Origin: a virus
Lineage: Duplodnaviria > Heunggongvirae > Uroviricota > Caudoviricetes
Virus record (IMG/VR): IMGVR_UViG_2703718856_000005
DNA: 51,466 bases
Direction: 5' to 3' (one strand)
A program made the position numbers and the translations under genes. The notes under the pieces were generated by a model, which worked only from the letters and a program-made list of their open reading frames with translations, was not told the origin of the DNA and made no database searches. This document shows, in pieces, positions 32,426 through 51,466 of this stretch; positions within the stretch are counted from its first letter, which is position 1, and every line of letters begins with the position of its first letter.

Positions 32426-33178
32426 TTATCTCGTCACCTTCCTCAATTGCGCTTCCGCGTATGCTTCTTCCTGCCAGCACTTTGTTACCAGTTTACCAAT
32501 GACGTCCGCATACCCCTTATACCACTGATAATCGGTCAGGTCTGGTACCAGCTTCTGGACATGACGTCGTGCCAGCGTGGTCGGTAAACGACTAAACCGG
32601 TTTCCATTACAACGCCCACAAATCTTATATACCGGTACGCCATGAAACCGGGTTCTTTTTTCATCCAGAACAATCCCTTTACCCTTACACCCTCTGCACG
32701 CTGTGCTGGCTTCGCCCTTACCATGGCAATGCTGACATAGTTCCTTCACCCATTCTTCCTTGATTACAGATTCCCCGCGTCTGTAGTGTTTCACCACTTC
32801 GCGCAATACATTATAAAATCCCGTACCTGAACAATGCTCACCGCGAGCCTTACTTGCCGCAGACCTGGAGTAATCAGCAAAGGCAAAACTCACGAGGTAA
32901 GGAATAATCTGTAACCGGATTTCTTCACTCAATTTGTTCAATGTCGGGTTATCCAGTGCCATCGCGTAATTTAGCAGGCCTTCAATCGCAAACTGAGGGT
33001 CCTGAACACCAACTTTTGCCAGAAATAAGGCCAACCCAAGTGGTGCTTTCGACTGCACCATCCCCTGCGCTGCCATTACATCCGTAATTGTTAAACAACC
33101 GGTGCCTGTCGCTGGAGCGTCATCGCTCAATTTTGGAGATTTTGGGGAGTAATATTTTGGTAAGGCTTCAAGGTTCAT
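32426..33178 (-). CDS. quuQ: late-gene antitermination protein Q (250 aa from internal start)
   Basis: Cys-rich zinc-binding region CQHCHGKGE...CRGCKGKG and position upstream of the lysis genes. Confidence 0.8.
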   Translation of the reverse strand: MNLEALPKYYSPKSPKLSDDAPATGTGCLTITDVMAAQGMVQSKAPLGLALFLAKVGVQDPQFAIEGLLNYAMALDNPTLNKLSEEIRLQIIPYLVSFAFADYSRSAASKARGEHCSGTGFYNVLREVVKHYRRGESVIKEEWVKELCQHCHGKGEASTACRGCKGKGIVLDEKRTRFHGVPVYKICGRCNGNRFSRLPTTLARRHVQKLVPDLTDYQWYKGYADVIGKLVTKCWQEEAYAEAQLRKVTR

Positions 33179-37110: not shown

Positions 37111-38424
37111 TCAATCTTTTTTATCGGGATCAGGCTTCTTTTTAGGTAACTTCGGGGGCTTAACTTGCTGATGACTTTGCGTTCGGCGCGTAAGCCAGGG
37201 ATGGTCAGCTTTAGGTTTAACATAGTATTTTGAGCGTAAATCAATACGGGCATTATCCACTCGTTCATGGACACTCTTTTCATCATCCAGTGGTATAGGC
37301 TCCGGGCCATCAACATACTTTTCCCAGCCCAGCGCTTTCCCGTCATACAGAACGTTAATTTCACCGTCAAAGTTCTCGCATACAGTAACAACCGAATGCC
37401 TAAGTCGATATCCCCGGCCCTCACTGCGTACCTGAAACGCACTGCTTTTGTACTGGAAAGTGAGATTTTTAGACAGAACGCGCTTCGCCTGTAGGCTGAA
37501 GATATAACCCAGTTCCTCTTCAGAATGGTGCACATCAAGATGAGCATTATCAGTAGTACGAGGCGACGTAGCGAACCGGTTGTTATAGGCTTCAATAAAG
37601 GTCGGCAACCATGCATTTGCTGTTTCAATATCACTGATATTCTGAAGCCGCATTTCTTTGACCAGCCTGTCCTGTAGTGTCTGATTGGCGCGCTCTACCC
37701 GCCCTTTTGCCTGCGGGCTGTTGGCATGGATTGGCTCGATGCCCAGTGTCTTTATCGCACGAGTGAACTGGGTCAGCTCAACTTCCCGCTCTGGGTTATT
37801 TACCCTGAATATACTGTGTCTATCAGAGTAGAGAGCGAGCGGTACGCCATGATCATTAAGGTAACCCCGGAGGGTTTCCATGTAAGCCCGGGTTGTTTCA
37901 GCAGGCACAAAACGCAACGCCATCAACGCACTGGTGGCATCATCAATGAAAACGATCAGTGTACATCTGGGGCCTCGATTTTCAAACCAGTCATGAGGTG
38001 AGCCATCAATCTGGATCAGTTCACCGTAAGATGGTCGTCGCATGCGGCGTTGATATATACGGGCAATTTTACGACGGCGTTCACGCCATAACCCCTCTTC
38101 TATCATCCACTTTCTGAGGGTTTCAACGGATAAAGATAAACCGTGTATCTCGCGCAATTTTTCGCACGCAAACGTAGGTCCAAAATCAGCGTAACGGCCT
38201 TTGAGGAGTGAAATTACTGTTGCTCTGAATTCAGTAGAAAAGGAATTATTAGGACGCTTTCCACGTCGGTGGGAAACCAGACCAGAAGGCCCTTCATTTC
38301 TATACCGTTGCACCAGACGTTTAACCTGCCGAATAGAAATGCCAATGCGTGCCGCAGCTTGTTCCTGAATAATCTGAAGTCGGTGGAGTTCCTTATGACT
38401 CATCGTAACAGTCTCTTTGATCAT
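37111..38424 (-). CDS. DDE transposase with N-terminal helix-turn-helix and rve-type integrase core (IS481/ISNCY-like architecture)
   Basis: 437 aa; catalytic-core-like segments QIDGSPHDW, LYSDRHSIF and KGRVERANQTLQ; element ends not resolved. Confidence 0.8.
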   Translation of the reverse strand: MIKETVTMSHKELHRLQIIQEQAAARIGISIRQVKRLVQRYRNEGPSGLVSHRRGKRPNNSFSTEFRATVISLLKGRYADFGPTFACEKLREIHGLSLSVETLRKWMIEEGLWRERRRKIARIYQRRMRRPSYGELIQIDGSPHDWFENRGPRCTLIVFIDDATSALMALRFVPAETTRAYMETLRGYLNDHGVPLALYSDRHSIFRVNNPEREVELTQFTRAIKTLGIEPIHANSPQAKGRVERANQTLQDRLVKEMRLQNISDIETANAWLPTFIEAYNNRFATSPRTTDNAHLDVHHSEEELGYIFSLQAKRVLSKNLTFQYKSSAFQVRSEGRGYRLRHSVVTVCENFDGEINVLYDGKALGWEKYVDGPEPIPLDDEKSVHERVDNARIDLRSKYYVKPKADHPWLTRRTQSHQQVKPPKLPKKKPDPDKKD

Positions 38425-39824: not shown

Positions 39825-40250
39825 ATGGAATTACAGGACTGGCGAAAAGAACCTCGTAAAAACTATTCGAATGAATTCAAACTTCGTATGGTGGAACTGG
39901 CATCACAACCTGGAGCTTGTGTTGCACAGATTGCACGTGAAAATGGCGTCAATGATAATGTTATTTTCAAATGGCTCAGGCTCTGGCAGAACGAAGGGCG
40001 TGTTTCGCGGCGTCTTCCGGTAACGACCTCTTCTGACACTGGCGTTGAATTATTACCTGTAGAAATAACGCCGGATGAGCAGAAAGAACCTGTGGCGGCC
40101 ATTGCGCCGTCTTTATCCACTTCCACTCAGACCAGAGTCAGTGCCAGTTCCTGCAAGGTGGAATTCCGTCACGGTAACATGACGCTGGAAAATCCATCGC
40201 CAGAGCTGCTCACAGTGTTGATCCGTGAACTGACCGGGAGGGGAAGATGA
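39825..40250 (+). CDS. tnpA: IS66-family accessory protein TnpA (orf1)
   Basis: 141 aa with helix-turn-helix, first ORF of the element. Confidence 0.85.
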   Translation: MELQDWRKEPRKNYSNEFKLRMVELASQPGACVAQIARENGVNDNVIFKWLRLWQNEGRVSRRLPVTTSSDTGVELLPVEITPDEQKEPVAAIAPSLSTSTQTRVSASSCKVEFRHGNMTLENPSPELLTVLIRELTGRGR

Positions 40251-40597
40251 TCTCACTCCCATCAGGTACCCGTATCTGGCTCGTTGCCGGCGTTACCGAT
40301 ATGCGTAAATCCTTCAACGGACTGGGAGAACAGGTACAACATGTGCTGAATGATAATCCCTTCTCCGGTCACCTGTTTATCTTCCGTGGCCGACGGGGTG
40401 ACACCGTCAAAATTCTTTGGGCTGATGCTGATGGTCTGTGCCTGTTCACCAAACGCCTGGAGGAAGGCCAGTTTATCTGGCCTGCGGTACGTGACGGCAA
40501 GGTATCCATTACCCGCTCGCAACTGGCAATGCTCCTCGATAAGCTGGACTGGCGTCAGCCAAAAACATCCAGCCGTAACTCACTGACAATGTTGTAA
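40247..40597 (+). CDS. tnpB: IS66-family TnpB (orf2)
   Basis: 116 aa; start overlaps the tnpA stop. Confidence 0.9.
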   Translation: MISLPSGTRIWLVAGVTDMRKSFNGLGEQVQHVLNDNPFSGHLFIFRGRRGDTVKILWADADGLCLFTKRLEEGQFIWPAVRDGKVSITRSQLAMLLDKLDWRQPKTSSRNSLTML

Positions 40598-40627
40598 AAA
40601 ACTCCTGACCGCATTATAAAAACGGTC

Positions 40628-42241
40628 ATGAGTCAGAAATACCTCATTCGCATCGCAGAGCTGGAAAGGTTGCTCTCTGAGCAGGCTGAAGCCCTCCGTC
40701 AGAAAGACCAGCAACTGAGTCTGGTTGAAGAGACGGAAGCCTTCCTGCGCTCTGCACTGACACGTGTCGAAGAAAAGATCGAAGAAGATGAACGGGAAAT
40801 AGAACATCTGCGGGCTCAGATAGAAAAACTGCGCCGGATGCTGTTCGGTACCCGTTCTGAAAAACTGCGTCGTGAAGTTGAACTGGCTGAGGCTCTGCTG
40901 AAACAACGTGAACAGGACAGCGATCGTTACAGTGGGCGGGAAGACGATCCTCAGGTTCCCCGCCAGTTGCGACAGTCGCGCCATCGTCGTCCGTTACCGG
41001 CACACCTTCCCCGTGAAATACACCGCCTGGAGCCAGAAGAAAGCTGTTGCCCGGAGTGTGGCGGTGAGCTGGATTATCTGGGGGAAGTCAGCGCTGAACA
41101 GCTGGAACTGGTGAGCAGTGCCCTGAAAGTGATCCGCACAGAACGGGTAAAAAAAGCCTGTACAAAATGTGACTGTATTGTTGAAGCACCGGCGCCGTCC
41201 CGCCCGGTAGAGCGTGGTATCGCGGGCCCCGGATTACTTGCCCGCGTGTTAACGGGAAAATACTGCGAACATCTGCCACTGTATCGTCAGAGTGAAATCT
41301 TTGCCCGCCAGGGTGTCGAACTGAGCCGGGCCTTACTCTCCAACTGGGTTGACGCGTGCTGCCAGTTAATGACACCGGTGAATGATGCCCTGTACCGTTA
41401 TGTAATGAACACCCGCAAGGTTCACACTGATGACACACCGGTAAAGGTACTGGCACCGGGTCAGAAAAAGGCGAAAACAGGGCGTATCTGGACGTATGTC
41501 CGGGATGATCGCAATGTGGGTTCGTCATCTCCTCCAGCGGTCTGGTTCGCGTACTCGCCGAACCGGCAGGGGAAACACCCGGAGCAACACCTCCGCCCCT
41601 TCCGGGGTATCCTGCAGGCGGATGCGTTCACAGGTTACGACAGGTTGTTCAGTGCAGAACGTGAAGGTGGTGCACTGACAGAAGTTGCGTGCTGGGCCCA
41701 TGCCCGGCGAAAAATCCACGATGTATACATCAGCAGCAAAAGTGCGACGGCAGAAGAAGCCCTGAAGCGAATCAGTGAACTGTACGCCATCGAGGATGAA
41801 ATACGGGGATTACCGGAGTCAGAGCGTCTTGCCGTCAGGCAGCAGCGAAGCAAAGTGTTACTGACGTCGCTGCATGAATGGATGGTGGAGAAGAATGGTA
41901 CGCTGTCGAAAAAATCCAGACTGGGCGAAGCGTTCAGCTATGTACTGAATCAGTGGGATGCCCTCTGTTATTACAGTGATGACGGTCTGGCGGAGGCGGA
42001 TAATAATGCTGCGGAAAGAGCGCTTCGTGCAGTCTGTCTCGGAAAGAAAAACTTTATGTTCTTTGGCAGCGATCACGGCGGCGAGCGTGGAGCACTGTTG
42101 TACGGGCTGATCGGCACCTGCCGTCTGAACGGTATCGATCCGGAAGCGTATCTGCGCCATATCCTGAGCGTACTGCCGGAATGGCCTTCCAACCGAGTTG
42201 ATGAACTCCTGCCATGGAACGTAGTACTCACCAATAAATAA
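40628..42241 (+). CDS. tnpC: IS66-family transposase TnpC (orf3)
   Basis: 537 aa; N-terminal coiled coil, CxxC zinc motifs, DDE-type core. Confidence 0.9.
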   Translation: MSQKYLIRIAELERLLSEQAEALRQKDQQLSLVEETEAFLRSALTRVEEKIEEDEREIEHLRAQIEKLRRMLFGTRSEKLRREVELAEALLKQREQDSDRYSGREDDPQVPRQLRQSRHRRPLPAHLPREIHRLEPEESCCPECGGELDYLGEVSAEQLELVSSALKVIRTERVKKACTKCDCIVEAPAPSRPVERGIAGPGLLARVLTGKYCEHLPLYRQSEIFARQGVELSRALLSNWVDACCQLMTPVNDALYRYVMNTRKVHTDDTPVKVLAPGQKKAKTGRIWTYVRDDRNVGSSSPPAVWFAYSPNRQGKHPEQHLRPFRGILQADAFTGYDRLFSAEREGGALTEVACWAHARRKIHDVYISSKSATAEEALKRISELYAIEDEIRGLPESERLAVRQQRSKVLLTSLHEWMVEKNGTLSKKSRLGEAFSYVLNQWDALCYYSDDGLAEADNNAAERALRAVCLGKKNFMFFGSDHGGERGALLYGLIGTCRLNGIDPEAYLRHILSVLPEWPSNRVDELLPWNVVLTNK

Positions 42242-42630: not shown

Positions 42631-42987
42631 TTAAAAAATCAGAACGCCGTGCGGCCTCAACACCCGAAAGGCTTCTTTAAATCTCTGTCGCGAATCATCA
42701 CGCCAGGCATCTTTATTCAGCCGTCCATATTTCTTTCCCATCCAGGCGTTATCACCAACACTCTCAAGATGCGGAGGGTCTAATACAACCATCGAAAAAG
42801 ATGCGTCTGCAAATGATAATGCACGAAAATCTGCGATAATGTCAGGGCTGATAATCAAGCGTCTCCCATTGCGTAATGTGTATCCTTCTTTTCTGATATC
42901 GCTGAATATCGCCCGTTCGTCAGACTTATCGAACCAGAACATGCGGCTGCCACAGCACATATCAAGAATGGTTGCCGGTGCACTCAC
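42631..42987 (-). CDS. DNA methyltransferase-like protein, short (118 aa), possibly truncated
   Basis: SAM-binding-like ILDMCCGSRMF and a DPPH motif resembling the DPPY catalytic motif of amino-methyltransferases. Confidence 0.45.
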   Translation of the reverse strand: MSAPATILDMCCGSRMFWFDKSDERAIFSDIRKEGYTLRNGRRLIISPDIIADFRALSFADASFSMVVLDPPHLESVGDNAWMGKKYGRLNKDAWRDDSRQRFKEAFRVLRPHGVLIF

Positions 42988-43406
42988 TGCGCCACGTCCT
43001 GAAAATTACCCTGATAGAAAGCCAGTATGCGCTGCATAACTTCGCTCTTCCGGCACTCGCGACAGATTATGTTTAGGCGACTGTCGTAGCGACGTATTTC
43101 TCCGTCAGGTGATGACCAGATAAGGTCCGGATCAACCACAGCAGGTTTCTTCACCTTTGCCCTCGAGAGTTTTTTGCGGGCGTTTTGCCAGTCCTTACGC
43201 GCCTGTTCAGAGGGGAATAACCCGTAGCCGGAGTTGTATACATCGCCACTGGCTACCAGCTCTCTGGCAAGAACGCTCATCAGATATCTAGTCGCACCTG
43301 TTTTAGCTTCCAGTTGCCGTAACGTCTCACGGCCGCTCTGGCGCACGAGTTCCACCACCTGCCATTTAATTTTTTCCCGCTCTTCTTGTGTAAAAACTTT
43401 TGCCAC
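42984..43406 (-). CDS. hypothetical protein, 140 aa, basic, possibly DNA-binding
   Basis: ORF translationally coupled to neighbours in the dicC-side operon. Confidence 0.4.
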   Translation of the reverse strand: MAKVFTQEEREKIKWQVVELVRQSGRETLRQLEAKTGATRYLMSVLARELVASGDVYNSGYGLFPSEQARKDWQNARKKLSRAKVKKPAVVDPDLIWSSPDGEIRRYDSRLNIICRECRKSEVMQRILAFYQGNFQDVAQ

Positions 43407-43446: not shown

Positions 43447-44466
43447 TTATCCTCTGAAACCAGGCGGAATTTCTGTATCCGGTTCAGAAATATGATTAAC
43501 ACAACGCTGTACAGGTGAACGTCCCAGGCGGATGACCAGTTCGTCCCATTTTTCGCGGAGCTTTGACGGGCTCATGATGTTTTTTACCCAGAATGGATCT
43601 CGCTGAACCCGACCAAACATTTCGCAAATTTGTCTGTGGCTTCTGCCATCCAGCATCCGCATTGTGCGCACGTCATTGGCCCAGGCAGTCCAGTTAGGCT
43701 CTTTTGGTCGCATGATCTCGCCATCATCACTGGCTGCCTGTTCGTAGAGACCCACGATCCGCCCCCAGATCCACTGCGCACACGCCAAATCCTCCCTGCT
43801 ACCCCACTGGCGTTTTTTCGCACTAAACACAACCGCGTCGGAGTTCCGGGTTAAAAAATCCTGTTCAGTCGTCTGCGGGTCCGGTTGCGAAGCTTCCGGA
43901 CGAAAAGTGTTTTTATTCTCTGTAGTAATCTCTGTTGTATTCTCTGTAAGATCATCAGGCCATTTTGACCCGATGACATTGGGTCGTTTTGAACCAATGG
44001 AGCGTTTCATTTTGACCTCTTCCATCGTGTCATTTTGACCTGATGGAGCGGCGCATTTTGAACCGATGGATTCGCTCAATTTGCCACCATCTAAAAGCTC
44101 GCTCCCATAGTTGATCGTGTAGAAATTGGTCATATCGCGCTTTGATTTATTGAGCTTTTCACAACGCAAAAGCCCCAGCGTTTTCAGACTTGCAAACGCG
44201 CGCTTTAACGTTGACTCTGACCAGAATGGGAACTGTTCCAGCCATTGTTCCGTTGTGTTATAAATCCAGCGAACACCATCACATTCCATGCCGGAGTTGG
44301 TATCTCTCAACCAGTAGTGCAGTTGTTGCAAAACAATGGCTTCGTTTAAGCCAATTTTCATTGCCAGCTGCGTGTTTATAACCAGTGGGCGTTCAGCAAA
44401 AAGAAGGCTCATAATTCCATCCAGCTTTTTGTTGGTATTGCTGTCGATACGCAAGTTTGAAAGCAA
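43447..44466 (-). CDS. phage replication initiator / replisome-organiser-type protein, iterons within the gene (alternative start at 44412)
   Basis: N-terminal winged-helix-like segment MSLLFAERPLVINTQLAMKIGLNEAIVLQQLHYWL; repeated IGSK peptide motif encoded by the DNA iterons. Confidence 0.75.
   Translation of the reverse strand: MLSNLRIDSNTNKKLDGIMSLLFAERPLVINTQLAMKIGLNEAIVLQQLHYWLRDTNSGMECDGVRWIYNTTEQWLEQFPFWSESTLKRAFASLKTLGLLRCEKLNKSKRDMTNFYTINYGSELLDGGKLSESIGSKCAAPSGQNDTMEEVKMKRSIGSKRPNVIGSKWPDDLTENTTEITTENKNTFRPEASQPDPQTTEQDFLTRNSDAVVFSAKKRQWGSREDLACAQWIWGRIVGLYEQAASDDGEIMRPKEPNWTAWANDVRTMRMLDGRSHRQICEMFGRVQRDPFWVKNIMSPSKLREKWDELVIRLGRSPVQRCVNHISEPDTEIPPGFRG
43961..44092. repeat. origin-like iteron array: about six copies of CATTTTGACC-type repeats at roughly 23 bp spacing, with three TCTCTGT repeats just beside it (43918..43950)
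   Basis: Repeats read directly at about 43961, 43987, 44009, 44031, 44054 and 44078. Confidence 0.7.
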
Positions 44467-44914
44467 TTGCTTTTTCTATAAGTTCGTCAGTTTCACGATC
44501 CACTACGGCAGGATCAGCAAAAAGCAGTCCGGACTCCACCACATCGCCATATTCTTTGTTTAACCCGGCGATCATGCACGTGATGCTTTTTCCGTCAGTA
44601 ATTTCACGATACAACCTGAAATCATTAATCCGGATAGCCTCCATAATTGCAGGCACTAGCGCCGTGAACTTTTCACGCTTATCCCTGGTGTCGATAGCCT
44701 TCCAGCGTTCAAATATCTTCACTCGATTAACGCCAAGCGCTCGCTGATCAATCGCGCCACCTTCATATGTGACACGCTGAACATCGATGTTCGGGCGCTC
44801 TTTCAAAGCCCAGAATGCTTCAGTGATTAATATCGTCGCCTGCTCCTGTGTCATTCCTGGTCGACATATCCAGGCATCCAGAGCCTCACGAGCCTGTTCA
44901 GGAGTGATTTTCAT
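44393..44914 (-). CDS. hypothetical protein, 173 aa, first gene after dicC
   Basis: ORF overlapping the dicC stop and the initiator start; family not recognised. Confidence 0.45.
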   Translation of the reverse strand: MKITPEQAREALDAWICRPGMTQEQATILITEAFWALKERPNIDVQRVTYEGGAIDQRALGVNRVKIFERWKAIDTRDKREKFTALVPAIMEAIRINDFRLYREITDGKSITCMIAGLNKEYGDVVESGLLFADPAVVDRETDELIEKAIAFKLAYRQQYQQKAGWNYEPSFC

Positions 44915-45128
44915 TGTTCAACCGCCCCGCCCGCTTCGTCTTACGATATTCATCATAAACTTTGGGATCATACTGAAGCTCCCCGCCAGATGCCTCCTGT
45001 AGACGCATCGCGCGACCTTCGGGAACTAAATCCCCTTTCCAGCTATAAAGCGAAGCCAAACGAATACCTGCTGCTTGTGCAAGTTTTGTTTTTGAACCGA
45101 AATACAAAAGAGCGTCAGTTTTAAGCAT
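44898..45128 (-). CDS. dicC: DicC, Cro-like regulator
   Basis: 76 aa, recalled as DicC; divergent from dicA. Confidence 0.85.
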   Translation of the reverse strand: MLKTDALLYFGSKTKLAQAAGIRLASLYSWKGDLVPEGRAMRLQEASGGELQYDPKVYDEYRKTKRAGRLNNENHS

Positions 45129-45211
45129 TTAAAACACCTTTATTGTTAGTCATAACTAACAAGATAGATGTTAACAAAAACATAGTCAATACGATTTAGC
45201 ATTAGCTAACT
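45129..45211. promoter_or_regulatory. dicA/dicC divergent promoter-operator region with three palindromes
   Basis: TTGTTAGT-CATA-ACTAACAA (45143..45162), ATGTT-AACAAA-AACAT (45169..45184), TTAGC-ATTA-GCTAA (45196..45209). Confidence 0.6.
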
Positions 45212-45619
45212 ATGGAAACAAAAAATTTAACTATCGGCGAACGCATCAGGTATCGTCGGAAAAACCTCAAACACACCCAAAGGTCTCTTGCTAAAGCCCT
45301 GAAAATCTCCCATGTGTCTGTATCACAATGGGAACGGGGTGATAGTGAACCTACAGGGAAGAACCTTTTTGCCCTCAGCAAAGTATTGCAATGCTCACCA
45401 ACATGGATTCTATTTGGCGATGAAGACAAGCAACCAACACCACCTGTTGAGAAGCCAGTTGCCTTATCCCCCAAAGAACTAGAGCTCCTTGAGCTGTTTA
45501 ATGCACTGCCAGAATCAGAACAGGATACCCAGCTCGCCGAAATGCGAGCTCGAGTAAAAAACTTCAATAAACTCTTTGAAGAATTACTAAAAGCCCGTCA
45601 GCGGACAAATAAAAGATAA
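45212..45619 (+). CDS. dicA: DicA, helix-turn-helix repressor
   Basis: 135 aa, recalled as DicA; XRE-type helix-turn-helix near the N-terminus. Confidence 0.9.
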   Translation: METKNLTIGERIRYRRKNLKHTQRSLAKALKISHVSVSQWERGDSEPTGKNLFALSKVLQCSPTWILFGDEDKQPTPPVEKPVALSPKELELLELFNALPESEQDTQLAEMRARVKNFNKLFEELLKARQRTNKR

Positions 45620-48141: not shown

Positions 48142-49827
48142 GTGGATGCCGGAAACATTGACGGCAGCATCCATCGCTGGGCAAAAAAAGAAGTTATCGA
48201 CAACGACCGCGAAGACTGGAAGCGTATCTCGGCATCAATGCGCAAACAGCCTGATGCCCTTCGCTACGACCGCCAAACTATTTTTGGCCTTGTCCGTGAG
48301 CGTCCGATCGACATTCACAAAGATCCCGTAGCACTGAACAAATATATCTGCGAATACCTGACGACAAAGGGCGTGTTTGAGAATGAAGAAACAGACCTGG
48401 GCACTGTTGATGTTCTCCAGTCATCAGAAACACAAACTGATGCAGTGGAAACTGAGGTATCTGATATCCCAAAAAATGAAACCGCGCCGGAAGCTGAACC
48501 ATCTGTAGAGCGTGAGGGGCCGTTCTATTTCCTCTTCGCAGATAAGGACGGAGAAAAATACGGTCGCGCAAACAAACTCTCTGGTCTGGATAAGGCACTG
48601 GCTGCTGGCGCCACTGAAATCACAAAAGAAGAATATTTTGCCCGAAAAAATGGCACATACACGGGCTTACCGCAAAATGTAGATACCGCTGAAGATTCAG
48701 AACAACCAGAGCCGATAAAAGTTACCGCTGACGAAGTAAACAAAATTATGCAGGCAGCCAATATCAGCCAGCCTGACGCCGATAAGTTGCTTGCTGCATC
48801 ACGTGGTGAATTTGTTGAAGGGATTAGTGACCCGAATGATCCGAAATGGGTTAAGGGGCTCCAGACCCGCGATTCTGTGAACCAGAACCAGCATGAATCG
48901 GAACGGAACTACCAAAAAGCGGAACAAAACAGTCCAAATGCGTTACAAAACGAGCCAGAAACGAAACAGCCTGAACCAGTAGCGCAACAGGAAGTGGAAA
49001 AAGTCTGCACCGCCTGCGGTCAGACCGGCGGCGGCAACTGCCCTGATTGTGGCGCGGTGATGGGCGACGCAACATACCAAGAAACATTCGATGAAGAGTA
49101 TCAGGTTGAAGTTCAGGAAGATGATCCGGAGGAAATGGAAGGCGCTGAACATCCACACAAGGAGAACACTGGCGGCAATCAGCATCACAATAGCGATAAT
49201 GAAACTGGCGAGACGGCAGATCACCCAATTAAGGTGAACGGTCATCACGAAATCACATCCACCAGCAGGACGTGTGACCATCTAATGATCGACCTTGAAA
49301 CCATGGGAAAAAATCCTGATGCCCCGATCATCTCAATAGGTGCAATATTTTTCGATCCGCAAACCGGAGATATGGGACCGGAATTTAGTAAGACTATCGA
49401 TCTGGAAACTGCTGGCGGAGTCATTGATCGGGACACCATTAAATGGTGGCTTAAGCAATCACGCGAAGCGCAATCTGCCATTATGACCGATGAAATCCCG
49501 TTAGATGATGCACTGTTACAATTGCGAGAATTTATCGACGAAAACTCCGGTGAATTTTTTGTTCAGGTTTGGGGAAATGGAGCCAACTTCGACAACACGA
49601 TTTTGCGCCGTTCATACGAACGGCAGGGGATCCCCTGCCCGTGGCGTTACTACAACGATCGCGATGTACGCACAATCGTTGAGCTGGGGAAAGCCATAGA
49701 CTTCGATGCCAGAACGGCTATTCCATTCGAAGGTGAGCGCCATAATGCACTTGATGACGCCCGTTACCAGGCAAAATACGTTTCAGTTATCTGGCAAAAA
49801 CTGATCCCGAGTCAGGCTGATTCTTAA
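48142..49827 (+). CDS. multidomain protein: acidic N-terminal region, central CxxC...CxxC zinc ribbon, C-terminal DnaQ-like DEDDh 3'-5' exonuclease domain (GTG start in track)
   Basis: Exonuclease motifs MIDLETMG, WGNGANFD and HNALDDARYQ; zinc ribbon CTACGQTGGGNCPDCG. Confidence 0.7.
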   Translation: MDAGNIDGSIHRWAKKEVIDNDREDWKRISASMRKQPDALRYDRQTIFGLVRERPIDIHKDPVALNKYICEYLTTKGVFENEETDLGTVDVLQSSETQTDAVETEVSDIPKNETAPEAEPSVEREGPFYFLFADKDGEKYGRANKLSGLDKALAAGATEITKEEYFARKNGTYTGLPQNVDTAEDSEQPEPIKVTADEVNKIMQAANISQPDADKLLAASRGEFVEGISDPNDPKWVKGLQTRDSVNQNQHESERNYQKAEQNSPNALQNEPETKQPEPVAQQEVEKVCTACGQTGGGNCPDCGAVMGDATYQETFDEEYQVEVQEDDPEEMEGAEHPHKENTGGNQHHNSDNETGETADHPIKVNGHHEITSTSRTCDHLMIDLETMGKNPDAPIISIGAIFFDPQTGDMGPEFSKTIDLETAGGVIDRDTIKWWLKQSREAQSAIMTDEIPLDDALLQLREFIDENSGEFFVQVWGNGANFDNTILRRSYERQGIPCPWRYYNDRDVRTIVELGKAIDFDARTAIPFEGERHNALDDARYQAKYVSVIWQKLIPSQADS

Positions 49828-50170: not shown

Positions 50171-51466
50171 ATGAGAGAAGTTGAAATGAAATATCCGACA
50201 GGCGTGGAAAACCATGGAGGGAAATTACGTATCTGGTTTGTTTATAAAGACGTAAGAGTCAGGGAAAATCTGGGGGTTCCTGACACAGCAAAAAACAGGC
50301 GCGTTGCAGGTGAACTACGCTCCTCTGTTTGTTACGCAATAAAAACTGGTGTTTTCGACTATGCAAAACAGTTTCCCTCCTCACGCAATCTGGAAAAATT
50401 TGGTGAGGCCCGACAAGATTTAACCATAAAAGAACTGGCTGAAAAATTTCTGGCACTGAAAGAAACTGAAGTCGCCAAAACATCACTCAACACATACCGT
50501 GCCGTCATCAAAAATATCCTGAGCATAATCGGTGAAAAAAATCTTGCCTCATCGATTAATAAAGAAAAATTACTGGAGGTTCGTAAAGAGTTACTGACTG
50601 GATACCAGATCCCCAAAAGTAACTATATTGTTACACAACCAGGGAGATCGGCTGTAACTGTAAATAATTACATGACAAATCTTAACGCCGTGTTCCAGTT
50701 TGGTGTTGATAACGGTTACCTGGCAGATAATCCGTTTAAGGGGATCTCGCCATTAAAGGAATCAAGAACCATTCCGGATCCTCTTTCGCGGGAAGAATTT
50801 ATCCGTCTTATCGATGCGTGCAGAAATCAGCAAGCAAAAAATTTATGGTGTGTTTCTGTTTATACTGGAGTTCGCCCTGGTGAGCTGTGTGCACTTGGAT
50901 GGGAGGACATAGATCTGAAAAATGGAACAATGATGATCAGGAGAAATTTAGCAAAAGACCGTTTCACGGTACCAAAAACACAGGCGGGAACCAATCGGGT
51001 CATTCATCTTATTAAGCCAGCAATCGACGCTCTCCGGAGTCAGATGACATTAACGAGACTGAGCAAAGAGCATATCATTGATGTTCACCTCAGAGAGTAT
51101 GGCAGAACAGAAAAACAAAAATGCACCTTTGTTTTTCAACCTGAAGTGTCAGCGAGAGTAAAAAATTATGGTGACCATTTTACCGTTGACTCAATAAGGC
51201 AGATGTGGGACGCAGCGATAAAACGTGCCGGACTCCGCCATCGAAAATCATATCAGTCGAGACATACTTATGCCTGCTGGTCGCTGACAGCTGGTGCTAA
51301 CCCGGCATTTATAGCAAACCAGATGGGCCATGCAGATGCGCAAATGGTATTTCAGGTATACGGAAAATGGATGTCTGAAAACAATAATGCACAGGTAGCT
51401 TTGTTAAATACACAGTTAAGCGAGTTTGCCCCAACCATGCCCCATAACGAAGCAATGAAAAATTAA
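50171..51466 (+). CDS. int: tyrosine site-specific integrase, apparently intact
   Basis: 431 aa; catalytic-domain residues including HxxR and terminal tyrosine context (RHTYACW, VFQVYGKW); stop codon is the last three bases of the window. Confidence 0.9.
   Translation: MREVEMKYPTGVENHGGKLRIWFVYKDVRVRENLGVPDTAKNRRVAGELRSSVCYAIKTGVFDYAKQFPSSRNLEKFGEARQDLTIKELAEKFLALKETEVAKTSLNTYRAVIKNILSIIGEKNLASSINKEKLLEVRKELLTGYQIPKSNYIVTQPGRSAVTVNNYMTNLNAVFQFGVDNGYLADNPFKGISPLKESRTIPDPLSREEFIRLIDACRNQQAKNLWCVSVYTGVRPGELCALGWEDIDLKNGTMMIRRNLAKDRFTVPKTQAGTNRVIHLIKPAIDALRSQMTLTRLSKEHIIDVHLREYGRTEKQKCTFVFQPEVSARVKNYGDHFTVDSIRQMWDAAIKRAGLRHRKSYQSRHTYACWSLTAGANPAFIANQMGHADAQMVFQVYGKWMSENNNAQVALLNTQLSEFAPTMPHNEAMKN

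Follow-up and report, generated by a model that had tools for sequence, protein, structure and literature searches.

The 51,466-bp stretch of DNA analyzed here (the window; IMG/VR record IMGVR_UViG_2703718856_000005) is a lambdoid prophage of the Qin/DicC type whose replication initiator gene carries an origin of replication within its own coding sequence. The initiator is a chimeric protein that ends in a peptide closely resembling the C-terminus of E. coli DnaT, and profile scans and translated searches show no gene for a helicase loader or a helicase in the prophage. We lean towards the reading that the initiator uses the DnaB-DnaC complex of the host, which we infer it would recruit through the DnaT-like tail. 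This very common replicon of E. coli prophages, which has no loader, departs from the usual lambdoid picture of an initiator accompanied by a phage loader or helicase.

The anatomy of the origin is of the lambda type, five conserved iterons and a sixth, degenerate one being followed by an A+T-rich stretch, all within the segment of the initiator gene that codes for the linker. A preliminary description, made from the sequence alone, had reported about six iterons of roughly 23 bp inside the initiator coding sequence, and both the number and the location hold: repeat finders and core statistics place the array at 43953..44091 on the minus strand, with five conserved units of 23/24 bp and a degenerate sixth unit at 44069-44091, and the 23-bp period is reported by the repeat finders for 43953-44084. 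The 10-nt core GKTCAAAAYG occurs five times, always on the minus (gene) strand, at 43961-44063 and 23-24 bp apart, and no copy exists elsewhere in the window; 0.67 copies would be expected in a sequence of this length, and five were reached in none of 100 shuffles. The ends of the iteron units are dyad-symmetric (CATCrG...CyGATG), as is expected of sites that dimers bind. Codon phases of the iteron cores are 2, 1, 0, 2, 1, and 1; since the period cannot be divided by three, the core is translated in all three frames, which argues for selection as DNA and not as a peptide repeat.

Directly promoter-distal of the iterons, in the same order as in the annotated ori-lambda, lies the A+T-rich stretch of 57 bp with 35% GC (43896..43952, minus strand), a putative DNA-unwinding element that contains three 12-bp repeats. 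These are tandem units of the form ACAGAGAwTAmw at 43917-43948, coding for TENT/TEIT/TENK, and the peptide DLTENTTEITTEN from this region is kept in homologs with other C-terminal parts (P0157, P0172, and P0175). In the AlphaFold 2 (AF2) model of the initiator, iterons and A+T-rich stretch together encode a disordered linker between two folded domains, the iterons being the codons of residues ~108-153, mostly within the disordered stretch 115-178. Among ~235 related loci, the iteron core (3-5 copies) is found only together with an N-domain at least 78% identical to that of the window and is absent where another N-domain is fused to the same C-domain. Such co-variation is expected of a cognate protein and its binding site. 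A relaxed search for DnaA boxes gave four matches in the 51 kb, when 4.9 are expected, and none of them in the iteron region.

The initiator itself (321 aa, 43447..44412, minus strand; PHROG 391 'replication initiation O-like', E = 1e-91) is a chimera consisting of a winged-helix N-domain, the disordered linker, a lambda-O-type C-domain, and a DnaT-like tail. Its true start is the ATG at 44412, as annotated in the phages PhiR42_1, HannyBb, and mEp460_ev081; a 339-aa open reading frame (ORF) with a TTG start was rejected as an artefact of the ORF finder, as these three phage records use the 321-aa ATG start. The N-terminal winged-helix domain (residues ~10-105; 44098..44385, minus strand), modeled with a predicted local distance difference test score (AF2 pLDDT) of 71-88, is presumed to read the iterons. 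Its best Foldseek neighbors are the N-domains of staphylococcal plasmid RepA proteins (4pql, 4pt7, and 5kbj), which are weak matches (E = 0.02-0.07), and a Foldseek search with the whole protein likewise gives only weak winged-helix matches for the N-domain. The Phage_rep_O N-domain (PF04492) has no Pfam match in the initiator at E <= 0.1, and lambda O scores 5.7e-36. For the C-terminal helical domain (residues ~186-298; 43519..43857, minus strand) kinship with lambda O is clear from hhalign (probability 99.8%, E = 8e-30 against residues 177-293 of lambda O) and from tblastn (E = 3e-21). The analogy to ori-lambda within O that had been drawn earlier is therefore supported more strongly than a reading of the sequence alone could tell, since the C-domain is truly homologous to that of lambda O. 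Neither Pfam nor NCBIfam covers the initiator, which RefSeq labels a 'hypothetical protein' and RAST-style pipelines a 'primosomal protein I'; both labels can now be corrected.

The tail of the initiator, QRCVNHISEPDTEIPPGFRG (43450..43509, minus strand), which the preliminary description had not noticed, agrees at 14 of 20 positions with the C-terminal 20 residues of E. coli DnaT, terminus to terminus (pairwise E = 9e-8), and it matches the DnaT chains 2ru8, 6aep, and 9zbt of the PDB as well as positions 160-179 of the 179-position DnaT profile of NCBIfam. The conserved C-terminal tail of the DnaT type, ..VSEPDSQIPPGFRG-COOH, is thus present in the initiator, and the GFRG-type tail peptide reads ..SEPDTEIPPGFRG. 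No match to the N-domain, the acidic linker, or the three-helix C-domain of DnaT exists in the initiator, in which similarity to DnaT is confined to the tail; as the tail alone matches, the initiator is not a member of the DnaT family. Other proteins share this ending. Rac YdaU, which is composed of a DUF1376 N-domain and a DnaT-like C-domain, ends in ..SLPDSAIPPGFRG, and ..P.GFRG ends are present in the 'gpO homolog' of Gifsy-2, in gp15 of Shigella phage 75/02 Stx, and in the initiators of Salmonella phage SPN1S and a Klebsiella phage. A tblastn search with the DnaT tail matched 48 of 50,697 phage records; in 45 of them, all phage records, the match lies in genes at the initiator position, mostly annotated with replication, and the remaining three represent either the host's own dnaT, in Salmonella contigs, or a fragment. 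Within the family defined by the O-type C-domain the domain is conserved and the tail varies, lambda O ending in ..LDLTNTDWIYGVDL. Judged from these comparisons, the tail appears to be a portable module on phage initiators. Neither of the strings IPPGFRG and TDWIYG was found in the searchable literature.

Two initiators possess a DnaT-like C-domain in addition to the DnaT tail, namely that of SPN1S (L318:1748-2563) and Rac ydaU (L085:2620-3477). The C-domain of SPN1S contains ..HHDQWQQKLARSVQ.., to be compared with ..HHVQWQQKLARSLQ.. of DnaT, and YdaU aligns to residues 111-179 of DnaT with 40% identity. Together with the gene orders dnaT-dnaC and ydaU-ydaV, these C-domains provide a hint that dnaT-dnaC may derive from an initiator-loader pair of a phage. 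A third class of tails on initiators with the O-type C-domain, ..RWNxIWxEcsQR..., occurs on proteins of 369-400 aa (L274-L276, L288, and L296); neither a P-like nor a DnaC-like gene was detected downstream of these loci, which are from Sodalis, Acerihabitans, Edwardsiella, and Yersinia.

That no P-like or DnaC-like loader gene follows the initiator had been stated at the outset, and profile scans as well as tblastn of the whole window bear this out. Scans with Pfam, PHROG, and NCBIfam identify no loader among the neighbors of the initiator and ten further ORFs across the prophage, and in these ten no replication function was seen. When E. coli DnaC, Rac YdaV, lambda P, and E. coli DnaB are searched by tblastn against all six frames of the window, nothing scores below E = 0.1, and the best E value is 0.5. 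The same four queries detect neither loader nor helicase by tblastn in the whole genome of phage HannyBb, which is 96% identical, and in the PHROG-style annotation of that genome an O-like protein is the sole replication gene. The gene directly after the initiator in the window encodes a DUF977 protein with neither an AAA+ IstB/DnaC nor a Phage_lambda_P domain. Of the two neighbors that the preliminary description had singled out, the 140-aa gene does lie downstream, but the 173-aa gene lies upstream of the initiator; in profile searches they turn out to be DUF977/Ren-like and YdaT/cII-like, respectively, and neither scores as DnaC- or P-like.

In sister copies of the same replicon, however, a loader gene is present. 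Eighty IMG/VR loci were compared in which the C-domain is at least 91% identical and the tail identical to those of the window. In about half of them a YdaV gene begins 7 nt past the initiator stop codon and is followed by DUF977, whereas in the other half DUF977 follows the initiator directly, as in the window. Loci with an N-domain 96-99% identical to that of the window and with the same iterons occur both with and without YdaV. Because such sister copies carry a DnaC-like gene between initiator and DUF977, the loader gene is to be regarded as facultative. Homology between the YdaV-containing and the YdaV-less state stops exactly at the stop codon of the initiator, a pattern typical of the exchange of mosaic modules. 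Over its full length, N-terminal region included, YdaV shares 50% identity with E. coli DnaC.

The loader-less form is widespread. Modules 96-99.9% identical to it are found in the deposited genomes of the phages PhiR42_1, HannyBb, and mEp460_ev081, and of 5,426 complete E. coli genomes, 1,585 contain at least 80% of the module; matched genomes have a median of two places where at least part of the query is matched. Other tail bearers without a loader, such as Salmonella phage SPN1S and a Klebsiella phage, are independent cases. A module of the E. coli type with 96% identity also occurs in metagenome-assembled genomes (MAGs) labeled 'Bacillota bacterium' and 'Veillonella parvula' (L246 and L248), most likely by contamination during binning. 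Both possibilities raised beforehand, direct use of host factors and loss of a loader, are partly right: loader-less phage genomes speak for the former, and sister replicons with a DnaC-like gene speak for the latter. As the loader-less form exists in complete deposited phage genomes, direct use of host factors is most likely.

The type of tail predicts which loader gene follows an initiator of the O family, as judged from gene order in 72 loci from different species (a collection with one genome per species), the downstream ORFs of which were classed by iterative profiles seeded with DnaC/YdaV, lambda P, DnaB, and DUF977. Lambda-O-like tails of the aromatic-x4-W acidic type, examples of which are lambda ..TDWIYGVDL and ..HWNSPEAWENTL, are present at 40 loci, and a P-like gene comes next at 39 of these, a DnaC-like gene at none, with no loader detected at the remaining one. 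At the 21 loci with DnaT-like GFRG tails, a P-like gene is never next; a DnaC-like gene follows at three, and no loader was detected at 18. The association of tail type with loader type yields a Fisher p value of 2e-15 when kinship of the loci is ignored, and IMG/VR contigs agree, with no P-like gene for GFRG tails and P-like genes for seven of seven WENTL-type tails. One locus with a GFRG tail and a P-like match at +901 (L259) was not counted, the ORF being shorter than 90 aa and thus too short, and too far downstream. Loader-less GFRG initiators are followed by genes for DUF977, PerC-like regulators, methylases, ParB-like proteins, RusA, and DUF1064, among others. A tail-bearing protein followed by a DnaC-type loader is encoded by several independent pairs, i.e., dnaT-dnaC, Rac ydaU-ydaV, Gifsy-2, and Shigella phage 75/02 Stx. 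A first idea, that the tail replaces a loader, had to be dropped, since Rac YdaU has the same tail and yet is followed by the DnaC-like YdaV; the idea was revised to one in which the tail goes with DnaC-type loaders, whether of phage or of host.

The loci recovered with GFRG tails are assigned to genera of the Enterobacterales, save a few MAGs and a single isolate without classification; two of the MAGs, with the labels Bacillota and Veillonella, are probably contaminated. P-associated relatives reach Aeromonas, Photobacterium, Gilliamella, and Pseudomonas too. DnaC is narrowly distributed, and so, as reviews state, is DnaT, which agrees with the restriction of GFRG loci to the Enterobacterales.

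In the mechanism that we propose, dimers of the initiator would bind the dyad-symmetric iterons and form an O-some-like complex, which would destabilize the adjoining A+T-rich DNA as lambda O does, and transcription from the promoter on the cro side may assist opening. The initiator would then recruit the DnaB6-DnaC6 complex of the host, loading being performed by host DnaC, and the recruiting element would be the extreme C-terminal peptide ...IPPGFRG-COOH, aimed at loaders of the DnaC type. A phage-borne DnaC paralog of the YdaV type would be an optional extra, which the copy in the window does not carry. Lambda O recruits the phage P-DnaB complex. In the lambda mutant Oam29, O without its last five residues (294 of 299 aa) has no O function (PMC6022878), which indicates that O-type initiators depend critically on their extreme tail.

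Several points weigh against recruitment of host DnaB-DnaC through the tail. Synteny of tail and loader is a correlation, and the loci are not phylogenetically independent. As most GFRG initiators have no adjacent DnaC-like gene, the partner of the tail could be any host factor. Fold matches of the N-domain are weak (E = 0.02). From the 2026 structure of the preprimosome, the N-domain of DnaT, and not its tail, has been suggested as possible recruiter of DnaB/DnaC, and the C-domain of DnaT docks on PriA (PMC13377028). A partner for the last 20 residues of DnaT was not found in the accessible literature.

In view of that structure, the main rival explanation is a linkage to PriA or DnaT, i.e., that the tail connects the initiator to the restart machinery by binding PriA or host DnaT, as the tail or C-domain of DnaT itself would, and that a primosome of the PriA/PriB/DnaT type loads DnaB at the opened origin. 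The tail is, after all, that of DnaT, the C-domain of which forms filaments and contacts PriA through a hydrophobic interface as small as 640 square angstrom (PMC13377028). DnaT without residues 154-179 binds single-stranded DNA (ssDNA) less cooperatively (PMC4132743), and some tail-bearing initiators, Rac YdaU and that of SPN1S, also have the DnaT-like C-domain. The initiator of the window, however, has the tail only and no DnaT C-domain, and it is not evident why an initiator able to open its own origin should need PriA, a protein that recognizes forks. Moreover, DnaC-like genes repeatedly follow the tail and P-like genes never do, so that a loader fits better as partner than PriA. We therefore consider a link to the restart machinery unlikely, although it keeps some weight.

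A further explanation, that the loader-less module is decayed or dependent, being replicated passively as a prophage or borrowing a loader from another prophage such as a Rac-type ydaV, appears improbable. It would agree with the presence of ydaV in sister modules, with insertion sequence (IS) elements just downstream of the replication genes (IS66 at 39825-42241 and another IS at 37111-38424), and with the median of two places per matched E. coli genome that match at least part of the query. But the same loader-less arrangement exists in the complete genomes deposited as phages (HannyBb, mEp460_ev081, and PhiR42_1), unrelated tail bearers such as SPN1S also lack a loader, 18 of 21 GFRG loci from different species are loader-less, and the initiator ORF is intact and conserved, as are the iterons and the tail. 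That the DUF977 or the YdaT-like protein might be an unrecognized helicase loader in place of P or DnaC is very improbable, for although DUF977 occupies the slot directly after the initiator and has a weak PHROG match to 'DNA binding protein', it follows a DnaC-like loader in Rac, in 75/02 Stx, and at ~39 IMG/VR loci and so is no alternative to a loader, its slot is taken by a PerC-like regulator, a methylase, or DUF1064 at many loader-less GFRG loci, it groups with lambda Ren (by PHROG and by a weak tblastn match), and the YdaT-like protein is a regulator of the cII type encoded upstream.

Returning to recruitment of DnaB-DnaC through the tail, a broader rule is conceivable, which we put forward only tentatively: the C-terminal peptide of O-type and related initiators might be a portable 'loader address', aromatic/acidic tails being directed to loaders of the P type and ..IPPGFRG to those of the DnaC type. 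If this is true, the last ~10-20 residues of DnaT would be what delivers DnaB-DnaC to the restart primosome, mimicry of DnaT would be the way in which loader-less enterobacterial phages replicate, and the dnaT-dnaC operon itself may descend from an initiator-loader pair of a phage. One hypothesis at the level of a peptide would then cover both the capture of the host helicase by phages and the handover of DnaB-DnaC by DnaT. How DnaB-DnaC reaches the restart primosome was still described as unknown in 2026 (PMC13377028); mimicry of the DnaT tail and the rule relating tail to loader make recruitment of DnaB-DnaC by DnaT directly testable.

Within the prophage, the immunity and replication region extends over ~42.6-45.7 kb, with the late genes at the left side of the window and an integrase gene at 50171-51466. 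A gene for a cI/DicA-like repressor of 135 aa (45212..45619, plus strand; Pfam HTH_3, E = 1.3e-16, and Phage_CI_repr, E = 7.5e-6) is divergent from the replication operon, which comprises cro, the cII-like gene, the initiator gene, and DUF977 on the minus strand. Transcription of cro, the cII-like gene, and the initiator gene would start from a candidate pR-like sigma-70 promoter, TTGACT-17-TATCTT at 45161..45189 (minus strand), predicted by a consensus scan only. The first gene of this rightward-type operon, which holds the replication genes, encodes a Cro/DicC-like protein of 76 aa (44898..45128, minus strand; Pfam P22_Cro, E = 1.7e-11), named dicC in RefSeq. The gene for the YdaT/cII-like regulator of 173 aa follows (44393..44914, minus strand; Pfam YdaT_toxin, E = 4.5e-5; PHROG 163 'CII-like transcriptional activator', E = 5.5e-40) and overlaps the initiator gene downstream of it by 20 nt. 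The DUF977/LygF/Ren-like gene of 140 aa (42984..43406, minus strand; Pfam DUF977, PF06163, E = 5e-29; PHROG 142 'Ren-like', E ~2e-47) occupies the slot where lambda has P and then ren. Its product shows similarity to the end of lambda Ren in the last ~20 residues (50% over 20 aa by tblastn, E = 0.004; also in HannyBb at 32659-32718), which is consistent with the PHROG grouping of DUF977 with Ren.

A methyltransferase gene fragment of 118 aa (42631-42987, minus strand) covers only positions 52-165 of the 229-position PHROG methyltransferase profile. About 390 bp past this fragment lies a complete element of the IS66 family (39825-42241, plus strand), identified by eye from ORFs of 141, 116, and 537 aa in the usual three-gene arrangement of IS66. 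A second transposase ORF of 437 aa with helix-turn-helix (HTH) and rve integrase-core domains is located in the nin/late-regulatory region (37111-38424, minus strand), so that at least two IS insertions exist in the prophage. On the other side of the immunity region, a 561-aa protein (48142-49827, plus strand) combines a long N-terminal part, acidic and of low complexity, with an Rv2179c-like 3'-5' exoribonuclease domain at residues 380-551; in related phages a 2,472-bp 'exodeoxyribonuclease VIII' gene is found in its place.

Origins within initiator genes are textbook knowledge for lambda, and the window shares with the lambda O/ori-lambda system the succession of iterons and A+T-rich region where the initiator gene encodes the linker, the homologous C-terminal domain of O, and the gene order of repressor, cro, cII-like gene, initiator, and Ren-like gene. 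Differences concern the iterons (5+1 of 23 bp in the window versus four of 18 bp in lambda), the extreme C-terminus (DnaT-like ..IPPGFRG versus ..TNTDWIYGVDL), the N-domain, which is not Phage_rep_O but another winged helix, and the P gene, which the window does not have. Of the features that define the lambda module, two are missing, namely the Phage_rep_O N-domain and the P loader.

With the Rac genes ydaS-ydaT-ydaU-ydaV-ydaW, with Gifsy-2, and with 75/02 Stx (the 'Eru4' type), the window has in common Cro-like and YdaT-like regulators, an initiator with a DnaT-like tail, and a DUF977/Ren-like gene downstream, whereas the DnaC-like loader gene that these elements possess between initiator and DUF977 is absent from it. 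Regarding gene content, the replicon of the window is of the Rac/Gifsy/75-02 type minus the DnaC-like gene, and regarding the initiator it differs from YdaU with its DUF1376 N-domain and DnaT-like C-domain by having the O-type C-domain. The sole link found to the published 'Eru' types is the Eru4 reference phage 75/02 Stx with its tail-bearing initiator and DnaC-like loader; in the published 'Eru' typing of Shiga toxin (Stx) phages, no text mention of DUF977, DnaC, DnaT, or a loader-less module was found. With E. coli DnaT, encoded directly upstream of dnaC, the initiator shares 14 of 20 residues at the very end of each protein and, possibly, a role in a system that delivers DnaB by a DnaC-type loader. 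It differs from DnaT in lacking the N-domain, the acidic linker, and the three-helix ssDNA-binding C-domain, and DnaT acts together with PriA/PriB at abandoned forks and not at a sequence-specific origin.

Iteron plasmids such as pSC101, R6K, RK2, F, and P1 employ a Rep protein that uses host DnaB-DnaC, and they share with the window one element-encoded initiator, iterons, and an A+T-rich region without a loader or helicase of their own. Origins of these plasmids usually carry DnaA boxes and need DnaA, whereas DnaA boxes at the origin of the window do not exceed chance; their iterons are not known to lie within the rep gene, nor is a DnaT-like tail known among them. In its logic, the replicon of the window would thus resemble, by analogy, those iteron plasmids that rely on host DnaB-DnaC.

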